Source: Octopus vulgaris
Taxonomy: Eukaryota
NCBI GenBank assembly: GCA_951406725.2
Contig: OX597819.1
Location: forward strand, 11,408,001-11,472,000
DNA length: 64,000 nucleotides
Direction: 5' to 3'
This document shows, piece by piece, positions 2,466 to 64,000 of the stretch. The position numbers and the translations under genes are program-made. Numbering within the stretch: position 1 is the first letter of the stretch; the number at the start of each line of letters is the position of its first letter. Under the pieces are notes generated by a model. It was not told the DNA's origin and searched no databases. It saw nothing but the letters and a program-made list of their open reading frames with translations.

Positions 2466-2970
2466 ATGTATGTATGTATGAGTGTATGTATGTATGTGTG
2501 TGTATGTATGTATGTATGTGTGTATATATGTATGTATGTATGTATGTGTGCATGTATGTATGTATGTTTGTATGTATGTATGTATATATGTATGTATGTA
2601 TGTATGTATGTTTGTATGTATGTATGTATGTATGTATGTTTGTTTGTATGTATGTATGTATGTATCTATGTATGTATGTATGTATGTATTTATGTATGTA
2701 TGTATGTATTTATGTATGTATGTATGTATGTATGTATGTATGTGTGTGTTTATGTATGTATGTATGTATGTGTGTATGTGTGTATGTATGTATGTATGTA
2801 TGTATGTATGTATGTATTATGTATGTATGTGTTATGTATGTATGTATGTATGTATGCGTATGTATGTATGTATGTATGTATGTATGTATGTATGTATGTA
2901 TGTATGTATGCATGCATGCATGCATGTATGTATGTATGTATGTATGTATTTATGTATGTGTGTATGTGTG
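2331..2970. repeat. Long degenerate (TATG)n microsatellite
   Basis: Direct reading. Confidence 0.97.
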
Positions 2971-3177
2971 GAGGACGGGAGGACTTAAATGACATGCAAA
3001 GGTACATGAAGCCCAGTTACAACTACAGCCGGCTATTACCAGTAAAGGTTTTAGCTGCCAATTTTGTACAAGACATTGTAGATCTTTAGCTGGGCTAAAA
3101 AGTCACATTCGATCACAGCACCAATAACTGTTAAGCTTCGTGCAATGGTCATACTCGATAACGAGGGGGCAGCCATA
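2971..3177 (+). mobile_element. 3' end of an RTE-type LINE with C2H2 zinc-finger remnant
   Basis: Frame reads GGLK*HAKVH...KGFSCQFCTRHCRSLAGLKSHIRSQHQ* (C2H2 at about 3056-3121), followed by a short 3' UTR and microsatellite. Confidence 0.65.
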
Positions 3178-3641
3178 ATGTATGTATGTATGTATGTATG
3201 TATGTATGTATGTATACGTGTGTGTGTGTGTGTGTATCCTCCGGAAAGACCTGGGAAACGTACACGGGATGGCTGTATGGAGGAAGATGTCTTCAGAACG
3301 AAAATGAATCTCCGACTGTCAAGATTCTCAGGTGAAACAATTTCCCAGCAGGAAACGCAAATAAGGGCAGCAACGCCAAACTATATCATTCACCAAATGC
3401 CATGTATTAAACGATTAATAAAGGTGTAGTAACAGCAACTGGCAGTGCCCCAGTATGGCCAGGGTTCTCGAGCTGAAACTATACACACACGCACACGCAC
3501 ACGCACACGCACACGCACACACACACACACAAGCACATACACATACACATATATATACATACATATACAAACATATATATATAGATATATATCAAAGTTC
3601 ACATGCTCGCATGTGTCTTTCATGTGTGTGCGTGCGTGTGT

Positions 3642-3691
<50 letters not shown>

Positions 3692-4893
3692 CATACATAG
3701 CGTAATTTCCATAAACATAAAAGAAAACACAGGAAGAACAGTGTTGACAAAAGTGGTATTGTTTTAGTGCTAGTGAATGTGAAATGAAAGTGATGTATAA
3801 AGCAACGTTTCGGACGCTGGATCTTCATCAAAAGGGGAGGGTCACAGATAGAGAAAGATAAGTGAGAGTGAAATGGTGTGTGTATAACAAAAAGAAAATA
3901 AAACATTGTTTTTTTGCATTTACAGATAATAGAGAAGTGATGCAGGAAAAAGGTGTAAGAAATTGGTGAAGAATGCATCATATGGCGAAATCGGAAGGGA
4001 GGGAGAAAAGAATGGGTGTGTAGACCAAAGTGTCAAAGTATTTCTCAGGCCGGATACGGGCGCAAGGGCGAATGGTGTAAGCATGAGTGTTGGGGTGGTG
4101 TATGTCTGAATATAGATGGGTGAAAATGTGGCGATGTGATGGAGTTGGTTAGCTTCGCTGTGGAGCGACGTTGTGTGTGCGTGTGCGTGTGTGTGTATGT
4201 AATTGTGTAGTGTGTGTGGTTGGAAGCGTGTGTTTGAATCTGTCATTCTTTCTGCATGTGTGGTCTTTTTATGGGTGAAACCCATGTTAACGAAGCGCTG
4301 TCGGATGGCCAGAGAAAGGTAGGAGGCTTTACTTATGTGTGTGAATGTGCATTAGCAAATACATGTAAGCATGCAGGGCTGGGAAAACAATATTTTCTCT
4401 CAGGAATGTGTTTGTGAAACAAGAGGCAAACTGTTAAAAATGTTTAAGATGCTAAAAATTCGGATATAAAGGAACAATTTCTACAGAGATCTGGTAATTA
4501 TGTAAACCAACACAGGCTGTGCATAGTCCGGAATAGGGAGATGTACTTATAGGGCCATCAAGCATACTTGGTGAGGTTGATGACTTTTGGACTCCCCTGG
4601 GGGATGAAAAACAAGATTTGTGAATGGTGGGTGAACTCAAGAGAGTCATCAACTAATCATTAGTGTGTATGTGTGTACGCGCGCGCGTGTGTGTATGTAT
4701 TTGATTGTGTATATGTGTGTGTAGACAATGCTATATGTGACACACAAAATTCTGTTTTGTATATGCACTTAAGCATATACATTCCTGTTTATTCCTCACC
4801 ATGTGTGACTAACACACACGCGTGCGCGCACCTACACATATTTAGATACGTACATATCTACATACATGAATACATATATACGTATATATATAC

Positions 4894-4956
<63 letters not shown>

Positions 4957-5049
4957 CACACACACACATATATATACATAATTATACATACACAGAGACA
5001 CACACACACACAGACATACACACACATATATATATACATGTATACATAC

Positions 5050-5094
<45 letters not shown>

Positions 5095-5102
5095 TGTATA
5101 TG

Positions 5103-5144
<42 letters not shown>

Positions 5145-5484
5145 TATATATGTATATGTATATATGTGTGTGTGTGTGTATACATATATACATATATATG
5201 TGTATATATATATATATATATACACATACACATGTATATATAGACGTACATACACACACACAAACACACTCACACTCACACACACACATGTACACGCCAT
5301 TATCTTGCACTCTGTGCATGTCGTTTGTATTCACAGACCCCATATGTATGTACAAACATGTATGGACATACATACCTTCTGTTCACATAAAGGAAGTGTT
5401 GTCTGTATATAAATGGGTCTGTGTAAAGTATGATCATTAATAAATTATTTTTGTACAACTGAATATGTAAAAAAATCACGTCTG

Positions 5485-5515
<31 letters not shown>

Positions 5516-5866
5516 TATGTATGCATGCATGCATGTATACACGTATATGTGTGTGAGAATGTGTATGTGAGTGCGTATAACCCCGCATATCTATACAGAT
5601 ACATAATTATTTCTGCATGTTTGCAGTGGTGTGTATATGTGTGTGGGTATGATGCACGCGTGTGTATATATGCATATGTGTTACGATTGTGACTGTATAC
5701 GTATAAGTTTATGTGTATGATAGTAAGCACATTTGCGTCTGTCGATATCTTTGCTACGTGTGTTTGAAAGAAAACTTCGAATGACCCGTCCTTGTTTTTC
5801 CTTGTCCCTTTTTTGTATCATCTAACCATCTGGATGTTTTGCGTTCTTGTCCCATTTTTTGTATTC

Positions 5867-5947
<81 letters not shown>

Positions 5948-5952
<5 letters not shown>

Positions 5953-6070
5953 ATCCCCCGACTATCGCGAGTATTACGTTCCAAATATCCCCCAACCCGC
6001 GATAGGGGAAAATCCGTGAAGTAGAAACAGTACGGCATATTTTTTCGCTACATTTGTAATTTGTGTATAC
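5948..6070. mobile_element. One end of a pogo/Tigger-like MITE (same family as 25012-25258)
   Basis: CAGTAATCCCCCGACTATCGCG...TTACGTTCCAAA...GAAAATCCGTGAAGTAGAAACAGTAC matches the reverse complement of the right end of the 25012 element. Confidence 0.75.
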
Positions 6071-6109
6071 TTCATTATTAATGCAAAGCAACACCACTAT
6101 ATATGTATA

Positions 6110-6330
6110 GTGGCACTTCGTCGGTTACAACGACGGAGGTTCCAGTTGATCCTATCAACGGAACAGCCAGTTCGTGAAATTAACGTGTAAGTTAAACTGA
6201 GCACTCCACAGACACGTGTACCCTTAATGTAATTCTCGGGAGAGATTCAGCGTGACACAGAGTGTGACAAGGCCGGTCCTTTGAAATACAGGTACAACAG
6301 AAACAAGAAGAGTGAAAGAAAGCTGTATTG
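6110..6330 (-). mobile_element. SINE family B, 3' part (tail type B1)
   Basis: Reverse-complement match to about 31120-31326. Confidence 0.85.
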
Positions 6331-6601
6331 AATGTTAGAGTTTCCAAGAAAAACAACTTCCGATAATTTTTTTTGCACTACCAACTATTTCAAAAATTCA
6401 GTTTCCGCAGGTGCTAACTTTGCCTTTCATCCCTCACAAGATAGAGGACTGGCCAAGTACTTGGGTCCGAGAGTTCCGACTTATCCCTTCTCCTCAAAAC
6501 CTCTCGCCATTTGCTCGAAACCAGAAACAATTATTATTATCATTAAAGAAATGGTAATAGGAATCTGTATGCTTTGGTGCATTTTCTTTCCTTTTTAAGA
6601 C

Positions 6602-6634
<33 letters not shown>

Positions 6635-6909
6635 TGTTGTTGTTGTTACTGCTGGTGTTATCGTCAGTGAGCTTTATCAAGAAAACGAATTTTCCTGAAA
6701 ATGGTCCGAGACACTCTTCAAGACATCGCCTACGAGAGGCCTAGTAATTAAAATGGTTCTATCGCTATGAGGTCTTGATAAAATAGTTGAGAAAAGCTAA
6801 AAGAGGTGGGGTAAGAGAGAGAGAGAGGGGGTGGAGAGAGAGAGAGAGAGACAGAAAGAAAGAGAACGGAAAAAGAGATAAAGACAAAAAGAGAGATATT
6901 GAGAGAAAG

Positions 6910-6960
<51 letters not shown>

Positions 6961-7264
6961 GAAAGCGTAGTGAAAGCAGAGTGAGATAGGGTTAGAGTAG
7001 TAATGGCGATATAGAATATTTTATAAAACTATGAGGTTGGTGGGGGGGGAGTAAGTTGCGTTAGTGTGAATAATTGTGTATATTAAATTCTGTTATTGTT
7101 TATTTGTGGACATCATATGCATTCACAGCTTATATGTGTGTGTGTGTGTTCGTGTTTGTATAGACATACCCACAAACATATTTACATTAATACAGGTGTA
7201 TATATGTGTGTGTGTGTGTGAGTGTGTCTGCGTATGTGTGTATTTGAGTAGGTGAATATATATA

Positions 7265-7322
<58 letters not shown>

Positions 7323-7325
<3 letters not shown>

Positions 7326-7525
7326 TTACTACCCACAAGGGGCTAAACACAGAGGGGACAAGCAAGGACAGACAAACGGATTAAGTCGATTACATCGACC
7401 TCAGTGTGTAACTGGTACTTAATTTTATCGACCCCGAAAGGATGAAAGGCAAAGTCAACCTCGGTGGAATTTGAACTCATAACGTAACGGCAGACGAAAT
7501 ATGGCTACGCATTTCGCCCGGCGCC
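7323..7525 (-). mobile_element. SINE family A copy
   Basis: Reverse-complement match to 1145-1378. Confidence 0.9.
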
Positions 7526-7586
7526 GATCTTCTGATTACCTCATTTCTTCTAATATATAATACCTGTACATCATCTCCAAACCTTA

Positions 7587-7701
<115 letters not shown>

Positions 7702-8461
7702 TATATGTTTATGAAGACAAAGAAAGGGAGACAGAGCAGTTAAAGCCGAACTCCAACGCGTTGACTGGCCGTTGCTTTTAAAATAAGAATAAAATAAAAA
7801 CAAACGGACTTTTCTCCTTGATTTATTTAGTTTGTACGTTAATCGTGAAACTCGTTTTTTACTGAGCACAATCTCTTATTATAAAAGGCAGATTTTATCT
7901 GCCTCCCTTTAAGGAGTTATACAAATCTACAATATAGGATTTCTTCAATTACAATTTACCTAGCAATTTTAAGAGTACAATGCATCGCGTCATGCCAGGT
8001 CCAGTTTTTAAAATTTAAACTCCAATTAAGCAAAATTTACAGAAAACTCACATTCTGGTGTGTGTGTCAAATGCTTTTCTTAGTCTGGTTTACACCACAC
8101 GCAAACGCACACACACAGTGGGCAACGAATAAAGTGAAACTAGATGTAATATTTAAAAAGAAAGCAGCAAACAGAAACAAATAAATACATAATGATTTAC
8201 TCCTCACACAATTTCTTCAATTACACTTTATTTCTTCAATTACACTTTACCTATGATTTTTCAAAGAACTTTCATTGGATCATGCCATACAAAATTTCTT
8301 TCAATTTCACCCCCAATTAAGACAAAATTCGAGAAAACTCAATATTTTAACATTTCACTTTGAAGCCTTTACTCTGCCTATTACTCCAACTTCCTCTTTA
8401 GACATATAGACACGCTAATATATATGACAGTGTCAATTGTTGACAGACATTGTAAGCTAAC

Positions 8462-8493
<32 letters not shown>

Positions 8494-8513
8494 GTCTGTG
8501 CGTGTGTGTCTGT

Positions 8514-8569
<56 letters not shown>

Positions 8570-9038
8570 CAGGGGTGAGCCATTCAGACTGGTCATCCAT
8601 TTTGGCGAGAAGATCCCTATTATAATACATCAGTTCCACACATTTACCCTGGATTCCATTTCGGACAACTGCACAAACATTTGCCATTTCACACATGTAT
8701 GTAAACAAATTCCTTTCTTTAAAAAATTTCAATTCATTTTCTTTTTTCAATTTACGTTTCTATACACTTTACGCAAATATTTGATTAAACAACTAAAACA
8801 CTTCACATTTCGAACATGTACGTAAACTACTTCCTTTATTGCAAATCTAACTTTCTTTTCTGGCTTTTAACTCAAATTTCTATACATTTTACACACTCTG
8901 TCGCTATACTTGCATAAAAAATTTCTTTCAGCTGCTAATATTTATTTCTTTTCCTTCCACGCTTTACATTTTTCCACATTTCATTCAAATTACAATTTCT
9001 ATCTTTAAGTAACTTTCACCCTTTCTTTTTCACATAAA

Positions 9039-12000
9039 ATGCCACCGAAAAAGAGAAGTCACATCGGCCGCCATACTGCAGCAGCAGCTGCGAAAAAGGC
9101 GAAGCGCAGCGCCATAAACGCTTCTGCTGTTGCTGCACAAAGGGCTTCTCGACTGGCTACAACCGCTGCGGTTGCTTCATACGATGCTGCTTCCACGGCT
9201 TCAGACGGTCCGGAAACAAGGTCGAAGCGCAGCGCCATAAACGCTTCTGCTGTTGCTGCACAAAGGGCTTCAGAGGACCCACAACAAAGGGCCACTCGAC
9301 TGGCTACAAACGCTGCGGTTGCTTCATACGATGCTGCTTCCACGGCTTCAGACGGTCCGGAAACAAGGTCGAAGCGCAACGCCATAAACGCTTCTGCTGT
9401 TGCTGCACAAAGGGCTTCAGAGGACCCACAACAAAGGGCCACTCGACTGGCTACAAACGCTGCGGTTGCTTCATACGATGCTGCTTCCACGGCTTCAGAC
9501 GGTCCGGAAACAAGGTCGAAGCGCAGCGCCATAAAGGCTTCTGCTGTTGCTGCACAAAGGGCTTCAGAGGACCCACAACAAAGGGCCACTCGACTGGCTA
9601 CAAACGCTGCGGTTGCTTCATACGATGCTGCTTCCACGGCTTCAGACGGTCCGGAAACAAGGTCGAAGCGCAGCGCCATAAAGGCTTCTGCTGTTGCTGC
9701 ACAAAGGGCTTCAGAGGACTCACAACAAAGGGCCACTCGACTGGCTACAAACGCTGCGGCTACTGCTGCTTCAACATTTTCGACACATTCCCACGACTCA
9801 GACCAGCAACGTTCTACATTCCAGCGGAACAGTCGACGCCGCGGTCTGACGAGTCCAAACAGACCTTACTGGCATCTACGTGCTTTCAAGTATGAGCTCA
9901 ACTTCAATTACTCGATGCACGCTGACATAAATATTGGGGAAATGTTCTTCAATTGCCAATTCTGCAATGCTAAAAAGTGGGCTGGGGAACCACCTGCGAT
10001 GTGCTGCTTAAACGGTAAGGTCAGCTTGCCCCCTCTTCGGGAGCTGCCAGACCCTTTGAAGGAATTACTTACTGGTTCCACCTCAAGGTCATCAAAATTC
10101 CTTCAACTCATCAGGAAATACAATTGTGCATTTCAGATGACTTCTTTCGGGGCTAACGTTGTCAGAGAAAGTGGTTGGATGCCTACTTTCAAGGTCCAGG
10201 GCCAGGTGTACCACCTTATTGGGTCACTCCAGCCACTACAAAATTGCAAACCTTCATTCATTCAAATTTATTTTATTACAAATTATAATAGGCAACTTGA
10301 TTTGCGTTTAGACGTAATTCCACAACATGCAAACACTAACGCTGACAATTTCGACAGGGACGTGCTGCTCACTCTGCAAAACATGCTTCATGACCACAAC
10401 AGCTATATTCGCAGTTTCAAATACGCCTTGGAAACAGCCCCTTCACCAACATTCACCATTGTCATCGATGCTGACAAAAGGCCTTCTGGGGAGCACGCGC
10501 GGCGATATAACGCTCCTTCGTGCAATGAAGTGGCCATAGTTCTCCATGGTGAACAGCACAAGCAGCGGGACATAGTTCTTCAAAGCCGCGACAGTGGTCT
10601 TCAGCGTATTAATGAGACGCATCGGTCATATGACGCCCTGCAGTATCCCCTTCTTTTTCCGTATGGAGAAGACGGGTACCATTTCGGCATTCCTCACCAC
10701 AAACCAAACGAGCCCTCGGCTGCGACATCTAAAACTGTTTCATGTATGGCTTTTTACTCATACCGCTTCATGACAAGGCATAATGATTTCAACCCCCTGC
10801 ACAGATCACGGCAACTGTTTCACCAATTTGCAGTTGACATGGCTGCAAAGATGGAGTCCGAGAGACTGGGCTTCATCAAATTGAATCAGAAGCAGCTGCG
10901 CTCAGACTCCTACATCCATTTGCGTGATGGCATCAGGAATGACACTGACGCCCGCAATATCGGCAAAATGTGCATTCTCCCCTCAACCTATACAGGGGGC
11001 CCACGGTACATGCACGAGCGAACGCAAGACGCTATGACTTACGTTCGGCATTATGGGCGACCCGATTTATTCATTACCTTTACATGTAACCCAAAGTGGG
11101 TTGAGGTAACGCGAGAACTTCTCCCAGGGCAGCAGTACTGTCATCGCCATGATATTATTGCAAGGGTTTTCAGGCAGAAACTGGCTAAGCTCATTCTTTT
11201 AATAAAAAAAGGCCAGGTTTTTGGGCCTGTTAACTGCCACATGTATACTGTTGAGTGGCAGAAAAGAGGGTTGCCACATGCGCACATTTTGCTTTGGTTG
11301 GTCAACAAAATAGACCCAACAGTTCTTGATGATCTCATTGCAGCAGAAATTCCGGACCCAACTGTTGACCGGCACCTGTACGACATTGTGAAGGCACACA
11401 TGGTACACGGTCCGTGCGGTCCTGGTTTTCAAAAGTTCTCCTCATGCCACAAAGACCACGTGTGCACTAAACGGTACCCAAAGAGGTTCGTGGACGAGAC
11501 CCAGACCGGCCGCGACGGATACCCACTGTACAGAAGAAGGCACCCTGACAATGGTGGATTCACTATAACGTTACGGGGTCATCAAGTGGATAATAGGTGG
11601 GTAGTGCCGTACTGTCCATTTCTGATGAAAACTTTTAACGCTCACATAAATGTGGAGTTCTGTCATTCAGTTAAGTCTATAAAGTATATATGCAAATATG
11701 TTAACAAGGGTTCTGACGCTGCCATGTTTGGCCTTCAAAAGGACAATAGCATGGACGAGGTGTCACAGTACATGGCAGGTCGGTACATAAGCAGTGGTGA
11801 AGCTTTTTGGCGGATATTCGGGTTTCCACTTCACCAAAGGCACCCCGCCATCATACAACTAGCGGTTCATTTGGAAAATGGCCAATGAATTTACTTTACT
11901 GAACAGACTGCAGCTGATTTGGCGGCAAATCCAAAACAAACAACTTTGACCGGTTTCTTTAGGCTTTGCCAACTTGACACATTTGCTAAAACACTTTTAT

Positions 12001-14010
12001 ACCCTCAGGTCCCGTCCTACTACGTGTGGTCAAACAACAATTGGGTGCGTAGGAAGTCGGGTCAGGATGTTGAAGGACATCCTGGTGTCAAGTTTAACAG
12101 TTGTCTAGGAAGAGTATACACTGTACCTCCAAACCAACATGACTGTTTTCACCTGCGCCTTCTCCTCCATGAGATTTTAGGCCCACAAAGTTTTCAAGAC
12201 ATCAGAACTGTTGATGGTGTATTATGTGATACTTTCCGTGAAGCCTGTTTTCGGCGTCGACTTTTGGAGGATGATTCACAATGGGGCGCCACTATGGCAG
12301 AAGGTGTTTCATTAAAATCTCCTAAAAAAATAAGATCGCTTTTCGTTATTCTATTACTATGGTGTGACTTGGCTAATCCCGCCTCTTTATGGCTTACCTA
12401 CAAAGATGATATGTCTGAAGATTTCCTGCATCACGCTCAATCGCTACATCCATCAATGGAGGTCGGGTACACTGACCTCATTTACAACAGGGCGCTGCTT
12501 GAAATCGAAGATACTGTACTCGATATGGGCGGTAGTGCCTTGCCGGTCTATGGCCTACCTTCAACAAACCGGGAAGGCACAAACACTCTGTCTTCACATT
12601 TGCTGCGTGAGACATGTTTTAATGTTGACGAGCTTGCCGAGTACATAGCCGACAATGAGCCAAAGCTCATTCCAGAACAGAAGTTCGCTTACAACTCCGT
12701 TGTTAATTCAGTCCGGGCCAAAGCTGGGGACATTTTTTCCTGGACGCTCCTGGGGGCACTGGGAAAACTTTTGTCAACAAATTAATATTGGCTGAGATTA
12801 GGCGAACACAAGGCATTGCCCTAGCTGTGGCATCATCTGGAATTGCGGCTACTTTGTTGCCAGGCGGCAGGACAGCTCACTCTACTTTCAAACTCCCACT
12901 TGACTTAGCGAAGACTGAGACACCAACTTGCAACATCAGTAACAGCTCCGATCAGGCAGAAGTCTTCAGACGATGCAAGCTTATCGTTTGGGATGAATGC
13001 ACGATGGCCCACAGAGGTGCTCTTGAGGTACTAGATAGATCTCTCAGAGACATCAAACACTCTTCAGCTCCCATGGGAGGCATAACACTTCTTCTTTCAG
13101 GGGACTTCCGACAAACACTTCCCGTTATTCCCAAAGGGACTAGAGCTGATGCTGTAAGTGCGTGTCTTAAGTGGTGAAGACTCTCAAACTTCACACCAAT
13201 ATGCGTGCTCATATGCGACGTGATATCACATCAGCAGCATTTTCTCACACCCTCCTTGCACTTGGCGAAGGCAAAATACCAGGGGATGAAAATGGTAATA
13301 TTGCCATCGATTCCATTTGTACCATTGTTAACACGCCTTCTGATCTCAGAGATGCAGTCTTCCCAGATCTACAAGCTAATTATCAGAATATGGATTGGAT
13401 TGGCCAAAGGGCTATTCTGGCCCCGAGGAATAAAACTGTTCACCATATTAATGATGAAATGCTAAAACTCATTCCTGGGGATGTCTATGTATATAAGTCT
13501 ATTGATACAACTCCTGACCCAGACGACGTCATCAATTATCCAATAGAGGTACTCAATTCCTTTGAGCCCCCCGGACTACCACCACACATTCTCAAACTTA
13601 AAGTTGGTGCCCCTATAATGCTCATTAGAAATTTGGTTCCCCCAAAACAATGTAATGGCACACGTTTGATCGTTAAGTCCTTATCTCCCAATCTGATTGA
13701 GGCCACCATTATCACAGGGTGCGGTCGAGGCAACGTTGTGCTCATACCTAGGATGCATCTTTTCCCATCAGGAGCAGACCTACCTTTCATATTTCGGAGG
13801 TCCCAGTTCCCAGTAAGGCCATGTTTCGCAATGTCAATTAACAAAGCGCAGGGTCAAACACTGTCTGTGGCAGGAATACATTTGGGAGAGCCATGTTTCT
13901 CTCATGGTCAGCTTTATGTTGGCTGCTCACGTGTCGGCAGCAACAGTGATGCTTTCGCATTCCTTCCACAACGAAAAACAAAAAACATTGTGTACAAGGA
14001 GGTTTTATAG
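9039..14010 (+). pseudogene. Helitron RepHel protein (HUH Rep plus PIF1-like SF1 helicase), disrupted
   Basis: Rep motifs DLFITFTCNPKW, VEWQKRGLPHAHIL and IKYICKYVNKG; helicase motifs DAPGGTGKT, IVWDE, GDFRQTLPV, FAMSINKAQGQT and HGQLYVGCSRV. Lesions: TGA at 11886-11888, frameshift in the T-run near 12733-12738, deletion/frameshift near 13171. Confidence 0.93.
9101..9760 (+). repeat. 147-bp (49-aa) coding tandem repeat, about 4.5 copies, in the RepHel N-terminus
   Basis: GAAGCGCA.CGCCATAAA recurs at 9101, 9224, 9371, 9518 and 9665; the first unit lacks 24 bp. Confidence 0.95.
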
Positions 14011-14979
14011 GATTACTACGTTTCATCATTTTCAAACACGTTAGTATTCCACTTACATACGACTCTCTTTTATGACGGCATTTACATTTCTAGGCGTTTC
14101 ATTACATTAATTCACACTTAACCAACACCTGTCCTTCGCTCAACTCTATTTCTATCCATTCATCATCAAACCACCAGCCTCATCTTCTATATCCAACGTA
14201 CATGACACATCTACCCCCTACATCTACACTCTCATTGTTAAAGTTTACATGAGCGACAACACGATCGCAACATACACTTTCGAAACTAATCAACAGATCA
14301 TTTTATACAACAACAAATTTAATCAAAACGCCCATCAATGAAAACATCTCCACCACTGTATTGTGATTCACCTAATCAGCACCACTACAGTCTTGCCGGT
14401 CTGACATATGGTGAGTAGATGCTATTGTTCTATATTTTATAAATTACACATATTTACTTACCCATGCTTCATTCCTCTCTTGCCTACATATGAAATCCAC
14501 TCTCTTTTAACACAGCATCAAGTTTTGTAACAGCACATCCGCTGCCATTCGTGCAAAACGAAGAGACCCTATTCACCTGCGAACGTTTTACATCGCCTTC
14601 CACGACTATCAAATTCTTACAATTATGAGAACAATAACATGGCTCATTTCAAGGCAACCTCACATTCAATTCTTACACCATTCTACGAGGGGGTAGGAAC
14701 ACCTTTACATGGCTTTCTATACACTTACAAATACATTCATTCGCCGTGAACTTATATCAATATTTGCCTGAATAATCATCATAATTCAGTGCAATCATTA
14801 ACAGTACTTTCAAGCAATTCAGCCCCGAGCAACGCCGGGCAATTCAGCTAGTAACTAATAAAATAGACTTCATCTATCTCACTCGCCTTCCATCATTTTC
14901 GTACAAAGGAGAAAAGTCCGTTTGTTCTTATGTTATTTTTATTTTAAAAATAACGGCCATTCAATACGTTGCAGTTCGG

Positions 14980-15291
14980 CTTTACTCTTTTACTTGTTTC
15001 AGTCATTTGACTGCGGCCATGCTGGAGCACCGCGTTTAGTCGAGCAAATCGACCCCAGGACTTATTCTTTGTAAGCCCAGTACTTGTTCTATCGGTCTGT
15101 TTTGCCGAACCTCTAAGTTATATACATATATACGACGAGCTTCTTTCAGTCTACCAAATCCACTCAGAAGGCTTTTGTTGGCTCGAGGCTATAGTAGAAG
15201 ACACTTGCCCAAAGTGCCACGTAGTGGGACTGAACCCGGAACCATGTGGTTGGTAAGCAAGCTACTTAGCACACAGCCACTCCTGCGCCTA
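14980..15291 (-). mobile_element. tRNA-derived SINE family C (internally deleted)
   Basis: Head GGCGCAGGAGTGGCTGTG.., GGGTTCAGTCCC, TTGGGCAAGTGTCTT, tail GAAACAAGTAAAAGAG. Many copies in the window. Confidence 0.9.
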
Positions 15292-15385
15292 TATACATAA
15301 TTTGCCGCTATCGGTCTAGCGACAGATTAGAAAGCGTGTTCGAATGTGGATGAAGAAGCATGTTTCTTCTCCTTCTCTTACATTT

Positions 15386-15468
<83 letters not shown>

Positions 15469-15470
<2 letters not shown>

Positions 15471-15756
15471 AGGCGCAATGACCCAGTGGTTAGGGCAGCG
15501 AACTCGCGGTCTTAGGATCGCGGTTTCGATTCCCAGACCGGGCGTTGTGTGTGTTTATTGAGCGAAAACACCTAAAAGCTCCACGAGGCTCCGGCAGGGG
15601 GTGGTGATCCCTGCTGTACTCTTTCACCACTCTTTCTTCTGTTGGCCTGCTCGCTTAGCCAGCGGGGTGGCGTTATTCGAAGGCTAAAACAATGCGAACG
15701 CATTGTGTCCAGCGATGTGTAACAACATCTGATGGTCTGGTCGGTCATGTGATCAT

Positions 15757-15760
<4 letters not shown>
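15469..15760 (+). mobile_element. tRNA-derived SINE family B with tail type B2
   Basis: A-box-like TGACCCAGTGG, B-box GGTTTCGATTCCC, tail ...GGTCGGTCATGTGATCATGTGA. Confidence 0.9.
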
Positions 15761-15812
<52 letters not shown>

Positions 15813-16217
15813 TACTTGTATATATGTATGAAATTCTGGATGGATGGGTGGATGGATTGATGGATGGATTGATGGATGGATGGATATCTGTTTATTTCGG
15901 CGGTGACTATTCTGTTCTTCGATTTCCTACTCATTGAAGTGTATGTGGCCGAATATTCATCCGACATGCTTCGACTTAACATAATTCTGAGGTAGAGTCA
16001 GCGTGCTATACAGTGTGTCTCGGGGTGCACTTTATAATTACTGGTATAATCAATCGAGCAGGCTTCTATACAGTTTCCATCTTACAATTTTTAGGTGAAT
16101 GCAAAGCTGTAGAAAATGACATTTGTCCAAAGTGACACACGGTGGGATCGAACTAAAGTACTCGAGATTACTGAACGAACTGACTCATAGAGCCATATTA
16201 CACCTATATACATACTT

Positions 16218-16248
<31 letters not shown>

Positions 16249-16653
16249 TATATATACATACATACATACATACATATACATACATACATACATATATACA
16301 TACATACATACATATATACATACATACATACACACACACATATATATACATACATACATACATACATACATACATACATTCATACATACATACATACATA
16401 CATACATACACACATACATACATACATACATTCATTCATACATACATACATACATACATACATACATACATACATACATACATACATACATACATACATA
16501 CATACACACACATACATAAAGAGTATACTATCTTGTATAAATTCATTCTTGCCATCCATGATGTTTTGTCTATCTTTTCTCGATATACATACTTATATAC
16601 ATACATATACATAGATACACCTATACGTAGTCATATGAATTTATGTGTGTGTC

Positions 16654-17599: not shown

Positions 17600-18665
17600 A
17601 TTGCTTCGGTTCGTGCTCTTGTTTGATGAGGCTGGGGTCATCCCAGATTAGTGGTCCCAGATTAGTGGTCCCAGAGGAATCATCATGTGTAGAGCCGACC
17701 AGGTCCACCAGTAGTTTCCTATTTCTTTACTGCCCACAAGGGGCTAAACACAGAGGGGACAAACACGGACAGACAAACGGATTAAGTCGATAAGACCGAT
17801 TCCAGTACGCAACTGGCACTTAATTTATCGACCCCGAAAGGATGAAAGGTAAAGTCGACCTCGGCGGAATTTGAACGCAGAACGTAACGGCAGATGACAT
17901 ACCTATTTCTTTATTACCCACAAGGGGCTAAAGACAGAGGGGACAAACAAGGACAGACATAGGTATCAAGTCGATTACATCGACCCCAGTACGTAACTGG
18001 TACTTAATTTATCGACCCCGAAAGGATGAAAGGCAAAGTCGACCTCGGCGGAATTTGAACTCAGAACGTAACGACAGACGAAATACCGCTAGGCATTTCG
18101 CCCGGCGTGCTAACGTTTCTGCCAGCTCGCCGCCTTACTGGTCCACCGGTAGTTTCCATCGCTGGCGGTCCCGTACCAGCCCCTCTGCATCATCCAAGGT
18201 GACGTTGAGCCTCTGGAGATCTTTCCCAATCACGTCCGGCTGCCTGGTGCCTGGCCTGCCACGAGCCCTGTTCCACTCCGCAGCTGCTACGTTGATTTAG
18301 AGTGAAGTCGGGTAAGATGGTCTCACGGGAGACAAAGGACCCACGCATGCGACGGATGGGAGGCTGCGCGTACGCAATTCAATATTGGAAACGTGATGGT
18401 ATCATCTGATAGTCTAGATGATCTTCAGGGTTCTGCTACCGAAGCCGTCGATCCTCTTTGCCAGGATCTTCGAGAGGGACCATTTTTCTTCCGCATACAG
18501 GAGAATGGAGAGGGCTTGATGCGTTCTAGATGCGGAACTTCGTCTTCCAGGACATAGAGCCATATCGCAAAATGGGCTTCCACAGGGAGTAGATGAGGCC
18601 GGCGACCAGATCAATTCTGCGGCTGGTCTCCAAGGTCAGGTCTCCATTATTGGTGGCTGTGGAGC
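17600..18665 (-). mobile_element. Degenerate RTE LINE 3' portion, interrupted by a SINE A dimer
   Basis: Minus-strand LSILLYAEEKWSLSKILAKRIDGF...W..ARGRPGTR..DVI.KDL..LNVTLDDA..LVRDRQRW are RTE motifs. Confidence 0.8.
17720..18135 (-). mobile_element. Dimeric SINE A with 18-bp target-site duplication
   Basis: Two tandem units; GGTCCACC(A/G)GTAGTTTCC at 17702-17719 and 18140-18157. Confidence 0.88.
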
Positions 18666-20118: not shown

Positions 20119-21270
20119 CGATAAATTCGACTAACACCGTTACGAACGCTAACCACACTAGCCCTACCACAACTACACACACCGATACTATCAGCAACAC
20201 TGCGCAAACACTACCACCATCACTGCATAAATACCTATTTCTTTACTACCCACAAGGGCTAAACATAGAGGGGACAAACAAGGACAGACATAGGTATTAA
20301 GTCTATTACATCGACCCCAGTGCGTAACTGGTACTTAATTTATCGACCCCTAAAGGATGAAAGGCAAAGTCGACCTCGGCGGAATTTGAACTCACAACGT
20401 AACGACAACCGAAATACCTATTTCTTTATTACCCACAAGGGGCTAAACACAGAGGGGACAAACAAGGACAGACATAGATATTAAGTCGATTACATCGACC
20501 CCAGTGCGTAACTGGTACTTAATTTATCGACCCCGAAAGGATGAAAGGCAAAGTCGACCTCGGCGGAATTTGAACTCACAACGTAACGACAGCCGAAATA
20601 CCGCTAAGCATTTCGCCCGGCGTGCTAACGGTTCTGCCAGCTCGCCGCCTTACCAACATCATACAACCACAGTCACAACATCACAACCACCAGCACTCCT
20701 ATAATTAAGTTAACCATCACCACTATTAACCACAACCGGTGCTACCTACCCCGCACCACCTCCCTTACCAACAAAATCCGACCACCAACGCCACTACCAC
20801 CACAATCACCACCACCACCACATCACCATCGCTACTAACACCACCTCCACCACCACCACCATCACCATCGCTACTACCACCACCTCCACCACCACTACCA
20901 TCACCACCACCACCACCACCACCACCACCACCATCACCACCACCACCACCACCACCACCATCGCTATTAACACCACCACCACCCACCACCACCACCACCA
21001 CTACCACCACCACCACCACCACCACCACCACCACCATCACCACCACCACCACCATCACCACCACTCACACCACCTCCACCACCACCACCACCACCACCAC
21101 CACCACTACCACCACCACCACCACCACCACCACCACCACCACCACCACCACCATCACCACCACCACCACCACCATCACCACGCTACTAACACCACCTCCA
21201 CCACCACCACCACTACTACCACAACCACCACTGCCACCACCACCACCACTACCATTATCACTACAATCAC
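19600..21270. repeat. (CAC)n/(CAA)n/(TAC)n low-complexity tract, interrupted by a SINE A dimer
   Basis: Direct reading; the source of the poly-T/P/V/G ORFs. Confidence 0.95.
20230..20650 (-). mobile_element. Dimeric SINE A
   Basis: Two tandem ~184-bp units plus head. Confidence 0.9.
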
Positions 21271-37063: not shown

Positions 37064-37158
<95 letters not shown>

Positions 37159-37349
37159 TTACATTATATAAAAGGGCTTAGTAAAATAAATTACTTTGCC
37201 GCATACTGAATTCATTAGAAATAGCAGCTAAAAAACTTTTTAAAACTATTTCTAATACTTAAAGAAAACCTCTCTCATATAGTGCTTGCTCAACTCAACT
37301 CACGAAAGTTTGGGGTAAAGACATCAAAAAATCAAATGCAAAGGTTATT

Positions 37350-37401
37350 TGAGAACGTACGTTTCAAGATTAGTCAACACGACACTTCTATCATCAGCTC
37401 A
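37350..37401 (-). ncRNA. Type I hammerhead ribozyme (inverted unit)
   Basis: Reverse complement of the 38231-38282 motif. Confidence 0.85.
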
Positions 37402-38230
37402 GAAACTCCTTGGTTTGGATTTGAAAACACTGAAAGTGAGAGCATACCCTTTCGGCTTCTCATCGCTTTCGAAGATCTGCTCGTAACTAACAGTGCTAAC
37501 AAACTCAAATATGCAAGCGAAGAATTTCTGTTCTCCTTTCCACCAGCGTGGGTTAAAATCAGCAAACACTATGCTTATTTCGGTAAAATCCGAAGCATTA
37601 ATTAGAGGGAGATTAATTATAATTTCAACAATTGAGGGTAAAATTAATTAATTATTAATCAATTTCACCAAGTGTTCAGTATGCAAAGGGACCATTTAAG
37701 GCGAATTCAAATTATTACATTATATAAAAGGGCTTAGTAAAATAAATTACTTTGCCGCATACTGAACTCATTAGAAATAGCAGCTAAAAAACTTTTTTAA
37801 AACTATTTCTAATACTTAAAGAAAACCTCTCTCATATAGTGCTTGCTCAACTCAACTCACGAAAGTTTGGGGGTAAAGACATCAAAAAATCAAATGCAAA
37901 GGTTATATAATGTAATAATTTGAATTCGCCTTAAATGGTCCCTTTGCATACTGAACACTTGGTGAAATTGATTAATAATTAATTAATTTTACCCTCAATT
38001 GTTGAAATTATAATTAATCTCCCTCTAATTAATGCTTCGGATTTTACCGAAATAAGCATAGTGTTTGCTGATTTTAACCCACGCTGGTGGAAAGGGGAGA
38101 ACAGAAATTCTTCGCTTGCATATTTGAGTTTGTTGGCACTGTTAGTTACGAGCAGATCTTCGAAAGCGATGAGAAGCCGAAAGGGTATGCTCTCACTTTC
38201 AGTGTTTTCAAATCCAAACCAAGGAGTTTC

Positions 38231-38282
38231 TGAGCTGATGATAGAAGTGTCGTGTTGACTAATCTTGAAACGTACGTTCTCA
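38231..38282 (+). ncRNA. Type I hammerhead ribozyme, predicted cleavage after 38278
   Basis: TGAG CTGATGA t AGA..GTC gtgtt GAC..TCT t GAAAC GTAC GTT CTCA: full core, stem I TGAG/CTCA, palindromic AACGTACGTT at stem III. Confidence 0.87.
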
Positions 38283-38790
38283 AATAACCTTTGCATTTGA
38301 TTTTTTGATGTCTTTACCCCCAAACTTTCGTGAGTTGAGTTGAGCAAGCACTATATGAGAGAGGTTTTCTTTAAGTATTAGAAATAGTTTTAAAAAAGTT
38401 TTTTAGCTGCTATTTCTAATGAGTTCAGTATGCGGCAAAGTAATTTATTTTACTAAGCCCTTTTATATAATGTAATAATTTGAATTCGCCTTAAATGGTC
38501 CCTTTGCATACTGAACACTTGGTGAAATTGATTAATAATTAATTAATTTTACCCTCAATTGTTGAAATTATAATTAATCTCCCTCTAATTAATGCTTCGG
38601 ATTTTACCGAAATAAGCATAGTGTTTGCTGATTTTAACCCACGCTAGTGGAAAGGGGAGAACAGAAATTCTTCGCTTGCATATTTGAGTTTGTTGGCACT
38701 GTTAGTTACGAGCAGATCTTCGAAAGCGATGAGAAGCCGAAAGGGTATGCTCTCACTTTCAGTGTTTTCAAATCCAAACCAAGGAGTTTC

Positions 38791-38842
38791 TGAGCTGATG
38801 ATAGAAGTGTCGTGTTGACTAATCTTGAAACGTACGTTCTCA
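38791..38842 (+). ncRNA. Type I hammerhead ribozyme, predicted cleavage after 38838
   Basis: Identical to 38231-38282, shifted 560 bp. Confidence 0.87.
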
Positions 38843-39350
38843 AATAACCTTTGCATTTGATTTTTTGATGTCTTTACCCCCAAACTTTCGTGAGTTGAGT
38901 TGAGCAAGCACTATATGAGAGAGGTTTTCTTTAAGTATTAGAAATAGTTTTAAAAAAGTTTTTTAGCTGCTATTTCTAATGAGTTCAGTATGCGGCAAAG
39001 TAATTTATTTTACTAAGCCCTTTTATATAATGTAATAATTTGAATTCGCCTTAAATGGTCCCTTTGCATACTGAACACTTGGTGAAATTGATTAATAATT
39101 AATTAATTTTACCCTCAATTGTTGAAATTATAATTAATCTCCCTCTAATTAATGCTTCGGATTTTACCGAAATAAGCATAGTGTTTGCTGATTTTAACCC
39201 ACGCTAGTGGAAAGGGGAGAACAGAAATTCTTCGCTTGCATATTTGAGTTTGTTGGCACTGTTAGTTACGAGCAGATCTTCGAAAGCGATGAGAAGCCGA
39301 AAGGGTATGCTCTCACTTTCAGTGTTTTCAAATCCAAACCAAGGAGTTTC

Positions 39351-39402
39351 TGAGCTGATGATAGAAGTGTCGTGTTGACTAATCTTGAAACGTACGTTCT
39401 CA
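39351..39402 (+). ncRNA. Type I hammerhead ribozyme, predicted cleavage after 39398
   Basis: Identical to 38231-38282, shifted 1120 bp. Confidence 0.87.
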
Positions 39403-39684
39403 AATAACCTTTGCATTTGATTTTTTGATGTCTTTACCCCCAAACTTTCGTGAGTTGAGTTGAGCAAGCACTATATGAGAGAGGTTTTCTTTAAGTATTA
39501 GAAATAGTTTTAAAAAAGTTTTTTAGCTGCTATTTCTAATGAGTTCAGTATGCGGCAAAGTAATTTATTTTACTAAGCCCTTTTATATAATGTAATAATT
39601 TGAATTCGCCTTAAATGGTCCCTTTGCATACTGAACACTTGGTGAAATTGATTAATAATTAATTAATTTTACCCTCAATTGTTG

Positions 39685-39737
<53 letters not shown>

Positions 39738-47055: not shown

Positions 47056-48267
47056 GATGGATGGATGGATGGATGGATGGATGGATGTACACATATTTAC
47101 AAACACGTGTATATATTATCTTCCGTTTTTAATGCTTTGAAATTTTCATTTTAAAGAAGGGCAGGTCCCCAAATTAGAATCAAAGAATCACCGCAAGAAT
47201 TTAGACAAACCCAAAGAGGAATAATAACATTGATGAATTTGAGAAAACCGCTGCATCCTCTTCCTGTTCGTCTAACATGTTGTATTTGTAAGTTGGCATT
47301 TCTTTGCCTGAAGCCTCTACCTTTTCCAGATTGGCATTTAGACATTTACAGATGAAAACCAAACGTGCCATTAATTATGGGTACAAATAAATACTGTAAG
47401 TTTGAATGCACTTCTAAAATACAGATATATGTCCACGGGTGGAGACTTGGAAGCCGAATAATGGGCATCTATTAATTATTTAAAATTTATTTTGACAATA
47501 GACGTAGGTATTGCTATTTGGGGAATAAGCGTTCAAAGTTAGCTTGATTAGAAATATACGTATAGAACAAATTTTGGCAATTTTCCATCCGAAATATTTT
47601 ATAATTTATGAGAAAACTGCAAAAGTGAAACAATCCTCTCTGTATGGAATCATTCTCTCATCTATGTCTGCATGTTTATGAAACGTTATACACACTGTCT
47701 GCCGAGTTATATTTATGAAGACACACTCTGTTGTGGCGGTGGTTATTCATTTTTTTTAAATGTATGTTTAGCAAGGAATTATGTAAGCTTTCTTCTCGGT
47801 GTGTGGCTGGGATGTAAACTTCTTAACTACAAGGACAGACTAATCTCTGCTCATCGATCAATGCTACATTGCATAAAATGGAAGTCCAGATACGCCGCCC
47901 GACGCAAACAACAACACACACACGCACACACACTCATACGTCTATATATATATGTATGTATGCATGTATGTATGTATGTATGTATGCATGTATGTATGTA
48001 TGTATGTATGTATGTATGTATGTATATATATATTTATATATATATGTATATATGTATGTATATATATATATATATGTATGTATGTATGATTTGAAAACCC
48101 CACTAGAATGGGAGAAAGCGCTAATGATCTAAGTGATATGATATATATATATAAAAAATGTAATATATAAATAAATATCTGTAAATATAAACCATCCGAT
48201 CTTCTGAGTACCTCATTTCTTCTAATATATAATACCTGTACATCATCTCCAAACCTTCTAATATATA

Positions 48268-48430: not shown

Positions 48431-49501
<1,071 letters not shown>

Positions 49502-50891: not shown

Positions 50892-51307
50892 AGGCAACAA
50901 GCTGGCAGAAACGTTAGCACTCCGGGCGAAATGCTTAGTGGTATTTCCTCTGCTGCTACGTTCTGAGTTCAAATTCCGCCGAGGTCGACTTTGCTTTTCA
51001 TCCTTTCGGGGTCGATAAATTAAGCACCAGTTACGCACTGGGGTCGATGTAATCGACTTAATACCTATGTCTGTCCTTGTTTGTCCCCTCTATGTTTAGC
51101 CCCTTGTGGGTAATAAAGAAATAGGTATTTCCTCTGCTGCTACGTTCTGAGTTCAAATTCCGCCGAGGTCGACTTTGCTTTTCATCCTTTCAGGGTCGAT
51201 AAAATAAGTACCAGTTACACACTGGGGTCGATGTAATCGACTTAATCCGTTTGTCTGTCCTTGTTTGTCCCCACTGTGTTTAGCCCCTAATGGCAGTAAA
51301 AGAAATA
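50892..51307 (+). mobile_element. Dimeric SINE A (184-bp internal period)
   Basis: GGTATTTCCTCTGCTGCTACG at 50940 and 51124. Confidence 0.9.
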
Positions 51308-62042: not shown

Positions 62043-64000
62043 GTTTCTTTATTAGCCACACAGGGCTGCACACAGACGGGACAGATTACAAAACAGAGCT
62101 TTTCTTTTTGGGGGAGAAAAAAAAAAGGTGGGGTAGGTTTTCGATCAAAAGGGATCGTAAAAGGAAAAAAAAGAAAGAAAAAAAGGAAAAGAAACAAAAG
62201 AAGAAAAAACGATCAATAGTGATCGTGTATCACAGTGTCATGATGTAAGGTGTAAAGGGGGAAGCAGATAAGGTTTATCCGTGGGCAGAAAAGCCTACGG
62301 AAAAGACCACGGTAACCTCGGTCAATATTGTTACATGTTACCACATTTGTTTGCAAGTAGGTAACCCCCTGTTTTAAGTTTCCGGGTTCATAGGATTATG
62401 CTCAAGGTGGCTTCGTCATTCATACGTGCCATCATTGCTACATTCACCCATCTTTTTTTAAACATTCGCTAGACAAAACTTGCCTCTCTACTCTCACTTT
62501 CCTTTTCAAGTGGTACTTGAAGAAGTTGATGAGAGATTGACTAGAGAGAAAAGTGTTTGTCTCCAAACCTTTCAGACGCGTCCACCAGATACATTCTTTC
62601 GCCATAGCCACAAGGATGATGAAAATAGCTTTTCCTTCCCGTTTGAAGGAAGGATGCGTGACAATATTGACGATAGACTCGGCTGATAAACCGACTCGTC
62701 CCACACGTGACAGCAGTTGTTCGACATAAGCCCATAGGTCGGAAATTGTTGGATACTGCACGAGTGCGTGCAGAACGGTTTCGTCGCTCTGACCGCATCT
62801 CGGGCAGGTCGGCCCCGTGTTTCTCGAGCCGTGTCTGTAGAGCTTATCCCGAACGGGTAGCGCTTCTCGGTAGCACTGCCAGGCCAGGGATCTCTGGAAG
62901 TTGTCCATGGGCCCTGGCCCGAAAGTCGTCCTGAACAGGCGAGTCAGGTATTCCTCGTCGACGTCCAGGTTCGCCCCGAGCTCGTCGTCGTACCTCCCCT
63001 CCACTAATCCCCTATAGAATGCTTGGGTTGTGTTGAAGTCACTCAAGATCGACCCGGGACGGCATAGTTGCTTGAGAGCAACGCGACACTCGCGGTGCCA
63101 TTCGCCCTTCTCGGCCTCTTTTTGATCCACGACTGCAGTTCGGTCATGGAGACGAGTTGCGGGAAAGCGTGCCTCACAAACGGCGACTACACCTGTTCAC
63201 CGTCATCTACATAGAGCCTGAGATGTCGCAGTCTCAGCGCGTGTCTGCACATCATCAACCACGGCATGCCCAGTCCTCCTTTTAACGGGTGTTGACAGCA
63301 AATAGATCGCCTGACCATCGGGACGCATCCTTTCCACAAGAAGCGAAAGAGAATGCGTTCTAGTTTGGTGATGGTAGGGTCGGGACAAGGCACGACGGTC
63401 AGGCGGTAGTAGACGACGGACGCGATGTACGAGTTCGCCACCTCCGCCCGACCTTGTCGGGACAGTTTCCTCTGGGCCCATTGCCTGGCGGGAGTGACCA
63501 CCCTACTCGTTATCTCGTTCCAGTTCTTCTCCATTTGGAGGTCCGGACCAAACCAGACCCCGAGCAACTCGACCGGACCGTCGGTCCAGCGTCCCACGAC
63601 GGAGGCGCTGGTGGACGGCATGGGCTTGCTTCTCCAGGTGCCGAGTCGCAAGCCCACTGATTTTTCCCGGTTGATTTTCGCTCCTGTCACCGCTTCGTAG
63701 TCTTTCAGTGTCTCGCCGACCTGCTCGATGTGCTCGTGGCTAGACACTATGACGGTGACGTCGTCCGCGTATGCAGACACGCTCGTCCCGCATCCCAATT
63801 CTCGCGGGATGCCCCTCAGAGTTGCCAGCTTCCGCAATAATGGCTCGAGAGTCAATACGTAGAGAAGCGACGAGAGGGGGCATCCCTGGCGAACCGAGCG
63901 TGCAATGTCGAAAGGTCTCGATAGATGTCCATATACGCGAATTACCGAACGGATTCCTCTGTACAAAGAGGCTATCCATCCGCGGAAGACGGGACCGAAG
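62043..64000 (-). mobile_element. Tx1/L1-clade non-LTR retrotransposon, 3' portion (extends beyond the window)
   Basis: RT motifs SVRQGCPLS..LY.L.LEPL and SAYADDVTV; C-terminal CPRCGQSDETVLHAL zinc knuckle; 3' UTR ends AATAAAGAAAC and abuts (TC)n. Confidence 0.93.
62444..64000 (-). pseudogene. LINE ORF2 (reverse transcriptase plus zf-RVT-like domain), disrupted
   Basis: In-frame stop at 63187-63189 and a frameshift near 63110 split the ORF. Confidence 0.88.

Follow-up and report, generated by a model that had tools for sequence, protein, structure and literature searches.

Hammerhead repeat arrays at two loci

We analyzed a window of 64,000 nucleotides (nt) of the Octopus vulgaris genome (assembly GCA_951406725.2, contig OX597819.1, positions 11,408,001 to 11,472,000 of the forward strand), and all coordinates without a locus prefix are those of this window. 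It contains two arrays of hammerhead repeats, referred to here as loci A and B (strand in parentheses):

37154-37890 (-): inverted arm of locus A, 1.3 units, with (TA)n at the proximal end (equivalent to 38480; both ends are defined below) and without the tail
37903-39692 (+): direct arm of locus A, 3.2 tandem 560-nt units that are 99.7 to 100% alike, with (TA)n at the distal end (equivalent to 38572)
38231-38282 (+): type I hammerhead motif of family A, from a motif scan and direct reading, with core CUGAUGA at 38235 and GAAAC at 38267
48547-48696 (-): short inverted arm of locus B, with (TA)n at the proximal end
48701-49450 (+): direct arm of locus B, family B, unit of ~565 nt, two copies of the domain described below, with (TA)n at the distal end
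49094-49156 (+): type I hammerhead motif of family B, with core CUGACGA and a predicted cut after the GUA triplet at 49150

Locus A (37154-39692) reads (TA)n, inverted arm, 12-nt junction, direct arm and (TA)n, and locus B (48547-49450) has the same layout, with sequences that are 77 to 84% alike. In the family A hammerhead, helix III is short and palindromic, and the cut is predicted after the GUU triplet at 38278; more copies lie within locus A at +560 and +1120 and on the minus strand at ∼37350-37401. Hammerheads were called by motif, using a consensus that was compared with PMC4209133. The Rfam search left the hammerhead motif of the locus A units undetected, and a regular expression found the motif in 82 of 88 tandem units from eight families. 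The core has C3:G8 in most families and U3:A8 in families D and E, the latter being a variant described in PMC4209133. Unit length is mostly 545 to 650 nt in all eight families, and the structured domain considered below starts ∼100 nt downstream of the hammerhead in each unit. No meaningful open reading frame (ORF) was found in locus A, where stop-to-stop frames span only 123 to 126 amino acids (aa).

The element is a non-LTR retrozyme built like a non-autonomous Penelope-like element (PLE), a class that is already known. Its hammerhead units are tandem, noncoding, a few hundred nucleotides long and low in GC (0.26 to 0.28 in the domain), and its insertions combine a partial tandem with an adjacent inverted, 5′-truncated copy, a tail on one side and a microsatellite target, in a 2.8-Gb genome that is rich in microsatellites. 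The hammerhead motif is no guarantee of activity, since only one of nine Xenopus elements tested was cleaved according to the accessible text of 10.64898/2026.07.22.740005. None of the records listed as containing the repeat is an RNA record, which speaks neither for nor against expression.

Several other repeats were seen. A different hammerhead repeat (L054:430-1030, minus strand) has a unit of ∼490 nt and a P5-like hairpin near its end (helices are named below); the covariance model gave no match to it, and it is a distant or unrelated retrozyme family. In the window, the plus-strand frames of 959, 298, 156 and 279 aa at 9009-14010 are presumably those of a Helitron Rep/PIF1 helicase-like gene; they contain 147-nt internal repeats and are split by stops or frameshifts. 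We take the minus-strand stretches 62444-63196 and 2039-2330 to be fragments resembling C-terminal regions of LINE reverse transcriptases. A common SINE-like element forms two-copy 184-nt tandems at 17718-18087, 20229-20602 and 50940-51288.

A conserved block in many diverged families

The repeat is abundant: exact genome-wide matches number 3,183 for one 20-mer of its conserved block and 3,918 for a second block motif, compared with 0 for the controls. A 14-mer from the domain gave 28,701 matches, but the domain was present at only 21 of the 60 loci fetched, which were drawn from the first 100 matches listed, skipping known A and B sites. As the 14-mer is this unspecific, a figure of about ten thousand domain segments is a rough extrapolation only. 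About 38 of these 60 loci (L262-L321, e.g., L293:3758-3980 and L301:3468-4010) hold another old, diverged repeat with a conserved core of ∼60 to 80 nt that has 14 bases in common with the 3′ arm of P2 and sometimes occurs as 107-nt tandems; the core is possibly a SINE-type central domain. A shorter repeat that carries the P2 3′ motif and ends in (TA)n was seen at L084:1330-1458 (-), L082:5380-5527 (+) and L297:3780-3900 (+). The covariance model matched it weakly at L084 (E = 0.016) and L082 (E = 0.29) and gave no match at L297; this repeat may carry a distantly related version of the domain.

Families C, D, F, G, H and I were reached one at a time, outward from chance neighbors. Eight clusters (A, B, C, D, F, G, H and I) account for 177 of 196 full-length sequences, the other 19 (singleton clusters and chimeric junction copies) being excluded from the family-level counts. 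Identity between families is 50 to 78%, with A and B at 89%, and the extra families E/K, J, N and I2 are represented by one to a few loci each.

Conservation is unevenly spread over the unit. The first-pass annotation, which was made from the window alone, had described a block of ∼100 nt as almost invariant between families. This holds for A versus B, which are identical at 91 of 99 positions of the block and at 66 to 68% in the spacers and ribozyme. When nine families are compared, identity to A in the block is 70% and 28 of its 99 positions are invariant, so it is better called the most conserved part of the unit than an invariant one. Across the eight families other than A, identity to A is 70 to 72% in the domain, 57% in the ribozyme region and 42 to 48% in the spacers. 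In four runs that carry the labels of other organisms, contigs cover 30 of 30 bins of the unit, and 1 of the 40 differences listed for these contigs lies inside 38423-38572.

A multi-helix domain outside the ribozyme

The domain comprises six helices, all on the plus strand (coordinates for locus A):

38373-38376/38517-38520 (+): P1, enclosing helix, only 4 bp in A and B
38377-38420 (+): P2, core 38380-38387/38410-38417 kept in most families
38423-38433/38506-38516 (+): P3, which closes a multiloop
38434-38459 (+): P4, hairpin with an internal loop and two compensatory pairs (C-G/U-A and U-A/C-G)
38488-38499 (+): P5, small hairpin, in a different register in families I and I2
38521-38553 (+): P6, hairpin, pairs kept in eight families, basal G-C replaced by A-U in family N

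P3 and P2 correspond to helices 1 and 2 of the first-pass annotation, and P1 was not part of it. All eight arm strings that it quoted are present where it placed them, the family B arms of helix 1 coming from one B copy (48734/48818) and those of helix 2 from the next (49256/49291). Compared with shuffled sequences, the region folds with z = −6.05 in A (38370-38580) and z = −5.37 in B (49245-49445). Helix 1 is present in the minimum free energy (MFE) structures of both A and B; helix 2 appears as quoted in A and as a hairpin in partly different register in B. P1 was scored apart from the 29 core pairs; outside A and B, each of the six families has 4 to 6 of its 6 scored pairs, and the MFE structures of C, D and I include it. 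At gathering score, no Rfam family matches the window, and 38150-38900 has seven matches at chance level (E = 1.3 to 7.2).

The folds of A and B by themselves had already predicted P3, P4, P5 and P6; RNAalifold recovered these four helices, and families C, D, F, G, H and I keep them. In the eight family majorities, 10 of the 29 core pairs vary; 12 of the 16 alternative states pair, and the 4 breaks are all at helix ends. The nine internal pairs of P3 are kept in all eight majorities, pair 4 appearing as A-U, G.U or G-C. Measured on the A1 reference, 91.7% of cells pair, compared with 35 to 44% for slid partners. Variable columns are matched to their partners (P = 1.7 × 10⁻⁴; internal pairs only, P = 0.016), the plain test of pair retention being weaker (P = 0.02). 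Changes on both sides were found in 9 pairs, compared with a mean of 4.2 in shuffles that ignore relatedness. In the family majorities they are clear for two P4 pairs and for pairs 4 and 10 of P3, four in all. A fifth candidate, P5 pair 1, is left out of this count because its register in family I is probably wrong. The covariation thus rests on few independent events. Families N and I2, which stood outside model building, add G-C/A-U changes in P6 and P4 and G-C in P5.

The pairing also has a strand. Among wobble states in the eight families, G.U occurs seven times and A.C not once on the ribozyme strand, and in every one of these families that strand has a more stable fold than the antisense, which points to the transcript rather than to symmetry in the DNA. 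The deeper family alignment, proposed in the first-pass annotation as a check on its covariation claim, thus yielded both partner-matched variation and a bias of G.U over A.C.

The two compensatory changes on which that claim had been built turned out to be the weakest, and not the conserved covarying ones. The C-G to U-A change in helix 1 is real between A and B and recurs within family A (41 copies: C-G, 29; U-A, 10; U.G, 2; C.A, 0), but it concerns the terminal pair, which is U.U in C, U.C in D and F, a C.A mismatch in N and unpaired in 6 of 17 rows. The U-A to G-C change in helix 2 is likewise present between A and B, but it lies in an outer extension of P2 that forms only in these two families (7 of the 13 rows with letters, all A or B). 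The larger claim, that a second conserved RNA domain lies outside the ribozyme, is borne out by helices that covary, are tied to the 3′ ends and have no Rfam match. We regard this covarying domain of ∼200 nt in a noncoding repeat, kept across eight families, as confirmed. A literature search (Repbase and Dfam aside) returned no description of a multi-helix domain of this kind.

Two insertion ends and a one-sided tail

We located the element boundaries at segment ends that abut (TA)n. Two sites dominate:

38470-38482 (+): proximal insertion end, in the AU-rich loop inside the P3 multiloop, after P4, most commonly at ∼38475
38475-38572 (+): tail, the block of ∼95 nt between the two ends, with the distal end at ∼38569-38572, just after P6

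Among 241 such ends from eight families, 84 are proximal, 148 distal and 9 elsewhere, so that 232 of 241 fall at the two sites. The first-pass annotation had placed the conserved block just upstream of one shared 3′ end; the tie to the ends stands, but there are two shared ends, and the block lies between them. With the ends ∼95 nt apart, the near-invariant block is an unusually long PLE tail.

The two ends are not combined freely. Of 75 two-armed insertions, 72 have one proximal and one distal end and 3 have two distal ends, in a sample in which most loci were chosen with tail-containing queries and double-proximal insertions were largely excluded by that selection. Both loci in the window are mixed. 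Independent 50:50 choice of ends would give ∼25 double-distal insertions among the 75 instead of the 3 observed (P ∼ 6 × 10⁻¹⁰). A sample not selected for the tail provided two usable two-armed loci, both of them mixed.

Search for an autonomous partner

The first-pass annotation had also proposed looking for the block at the ends of autonomous elements encoding reverse transcriptase (RT). We used a GIY-YIG family search (best 150 of 6,136) and two protein searches, with 2,905 to 16,552 candidates and 150 scored in each. About 105 PLE-bearing loci were scanned by blastn, nhmmer or covariance model, and ∼14 families were separated by eye from their 3′ sequence. This search was negative: the domain was absent from the ∼14 PLE families sampled (best 150 candidates per search), and at PLE-bearing loci it was seen only as separate insertions bounded by (TA)n. 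Apparent links of the domain to a following ORF at L235 and L271 were rejected, as a (TA)n tract divides two insertions; the 3′ end of the L235 element was found, without the domain. A 2,250-nt spacing at C1:33.47 Mb was also discarded, as it reflects two unrelated insertions with no ORF. In the accessible part of the PMC8557442 supplement, the searched motifs were absent from the octopus Naiad and Hydra consensus sequences, and two domain motifs had 0 matches in the supplement as a whole. The matches listed for two other motifs (2/2 and 2/3) were set aside as GC-rich, Chlamys-type entries.

The genome is nevertheless rich in PLE families, including intact Neptune-type frames of 776 to 847 aa. 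Among its autonomous Neptune-type elements, several also carry a U3:A8 hammerhead motif, insert in (TA)n and end at two sites ∼40 nt apart, so that suitable machinery exists in the genome. An abundant intact Neptune-type PLE (L081:1-5172 and L085) has a unit of ∼4.8 kb, a 781-aa RT/GIY-YIG frame, a U3:A8 hammerhead and its own hairpin tail of ∼40 nt; its long 5′ region is possibly another ORF. The PLE family at L242-L261 is very abundant (16,552 first-look candidates) and has a pyrimidine-rich 3′ untranslated region and a minimal hammerhead near the end. In the window, visual comparison shows a match between 48088-48150 (+), immediately to the left of locus B, and the 3′ end of the L162 PLE family.

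A probable recognition and priming domain

The domain, with P1 to P6 and both insertion ends, is likely a cis-acting RNA at which a borrowed PLE protein (RT plus GIY-YIG) binds and starts. The first-pass annotation had suggested an RT recognition or priming domain, and this is still the best interpretation, strengthened by the location of two ends within the domain and by the one-of-each rule. It draws on two-site initiation in the assayed PLE, the PLE-type layout of the insertions and the argument linking retrozymes to PLEs (all three discussed below). Several points count against it: no autonomous PLE with the domain was found in the search above, the covariation comes from few independent events, the AU-rich ends could be set by (TA)n microhomology, and the tail measures ∼95 nt, compared with 30 to 40 nt in described PLEs.

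The following sequence of events would produce the insertions. Tandem units would be transcribed, and the hammerhead would cut the transcripts into ∼560-nt monomers or circles. A PLE protein, probably as a dimer, would bind the domain and cut both strands of a (TA)n tract. One DNA end would prime at the distal site, just 3′ of P6; the other would do so at the proximal site, in the AU-rich loop of the P3 multiloop, perhaps helped by 3 to 6 nt of UA pairing with the target. Both cDNAs would be extended toward the 5′ side and beyond the ribozyme site, which would need a circular or uncut multimeric template because the arms span 1.3 to 3.2 units. The cDNAs would then join head to head, leaving the ∼95-nt tail on one arm only.

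Of the alternatives, the one that survives best takes the fold as real but serving another step (stability, export or ligation of circles, or the state of the hammerhead), the ends being merely unpaired UA-rich stretches that pair with a cut (TA)n tract. We consider it unlikely, while giving it more weight than the others. Both ends are indeed unpaired and AU-rich and have a few bases in common with the adjoining TA run, so (TA)n microhomology could place them without a protein recognizing the fold. The whole 560-nt unit is strongly structured as well (z = −6.24), and the failure to find a partner among the ∼14 PLE families fits this reading too. However, other AU-rich stretches, such as the P6 loop and the spacers, hardly serve as ends (the 9 of 241 elsewhere), the rule of one distal and one proximal end needs coordination, and conservation falls sharply just beyond the distal end.

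It is less probable again that the tail is read as DNA, as an endonuclease site or a promoter, with pairing secondary. Promoter-type conserved blocks occur in amphibian satellite 2, and many positions of the domain are invariant in sequence, unpaired ones included (the 28 of 99 in the tail). In addition, the tail of Drosophila virilis Penelope was reported to be necessary for DNA recognition by the endonuclease (cited in the accessible text of PMC11167929). A duplex signal would not, however, favor partner-matched changes or G.U over A.C on one strand, and conservation reaches back ∼100 nt from the tail on its upstream side, taking in the 5′ arms of these helices. Finally, compensatory changes might be by-products of events in DNA (quasi-palindrome template switching or tail swapping between families) rather than of selection on the fold, as many inversion junctions fall at helix arms and the two originally cited pairs are lineage specific and lost elsewhere, but we hold this to be very improbable, since copying from arm to arm would make both strands perfectly Watson-Crick symmetric instead of favoring G.U by 7:0 on the ribozyme strand, the arms of P3 enclose 72 nt that are not palindromic, and families only 50 to 78% alike keep the same helices, with N and I2 adding new compensatory pairs.

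Returning to the domain as a binding and start site for a borrowed PLE protein, a more specific version is that it acts as a template-positioning scaffold for a PLE dimer, whose two active sites would each extend one end of a single DNA break into cDNA, the start points lying ∼95 nt apart. We put this forward tentatively, as a possibility that is more apt to fail than the general reading. If true, a single step would account for three features of Penelope insertions, namely their tail, their inverted arm and their head-to-head junction. The domain would also be the first recognition structure for a PLE enzyme to be defined by covariation, kept by at least ten parasite families, perhaps after the autonomous donor had changed or was lost.

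PLE enzymes are the closest retrotransposon relatives of telomerase, and to our knowledge only one PLE has been assayed in vitro. How PLEs choose their RNA and make tandem, inverted, tailed insertions was named as the next task by Craig et al. (in the accessible text of PMC8557442). The octopus families amount to a natural mutational scan, with thousands of insertions, at least eight diverged families, a defined fold and two mapped ends, and together with the strict one-of-each rule this makes the two-primer model directly testable. The anatomy of the insertions also supports the view that PLE machinery mobilizes animal retrozymes.

Comparison with known systems

Animal retrozymes have been argued to be non-autonomous PLE derivatives (10.64898/2026.07.22.740005 and PMC7229834, both in their accessible text). 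Those described there share with the octopus element tandem, noncoding type I hammerhead units, low GC content, high copy number and many families. In contrast, the accessible text of the two sources mentions neither a conserved structure apart from the ribozyme, nor 3′ ends fixed at two sites, nor a head-to-head arrangement, and the samples described there include no cephalopod. As a further difference, the octopus element showed no homology to an autonomous pLTR in our searches.

The tandem, inverted layout with a one-sided tail at microsatellites is typical of PLEs, according to the accessible text of PMC8557442. PLE insertions and Chlamys MRC1 in that study share with our loci the partial tandems, the inverted 5′-truncated copy, the tail at one end, the microsatellite targets and the existence of non-autonomous derivatives. 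Their tails, however, measure 30 to 40 bp rather than ∼95 nt, and the non-autonomous elements there resemble an autonomous family at the 3′ end, a likeness that we did not find here.

The Poseidon element PAc of Anolis carolinensis comes closest in mechanism. On AT-rich DNA, its protein cuts both strands and extends them, and on the RNA it initiates at two internal sites within a stem-loop, the tail being the stretch between them (accessible text of PMC11167929). As in the octopus element, a hammerhead is followed after ∼100 to 150 nt by two internal start sites, and PAc also has AT-rich targets and a predicted protein dimer (PMC11167929, same part). The PAc sites differ in lying within an ORF, in an AC-rich stem-loop, 30 to 40 nt apart and not homologous to the target (PMC11167929). 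The octopus element is noncoding, with UA-rich sites ∼95 nt apart in a multi-helix domain, and while PAc has been assayed, the octopus element is described here from its sequence.

A broader parallel is with SINEs, whose 3′ tails mimic the stem-loop of a partner LINE. In both cases a parasite diverges over the rest of its sequence but retains a structured 3′ signal for the reverse transcriptase that it borrows. LINE priming uses one site, at the RNA 3′ end, whereas the octopus element has two internal sites, a ribozyme and inverted arms. Compared with these systems, the multi-helix domain, the ∼95-nt tail and the rule of one end per arm are new here.
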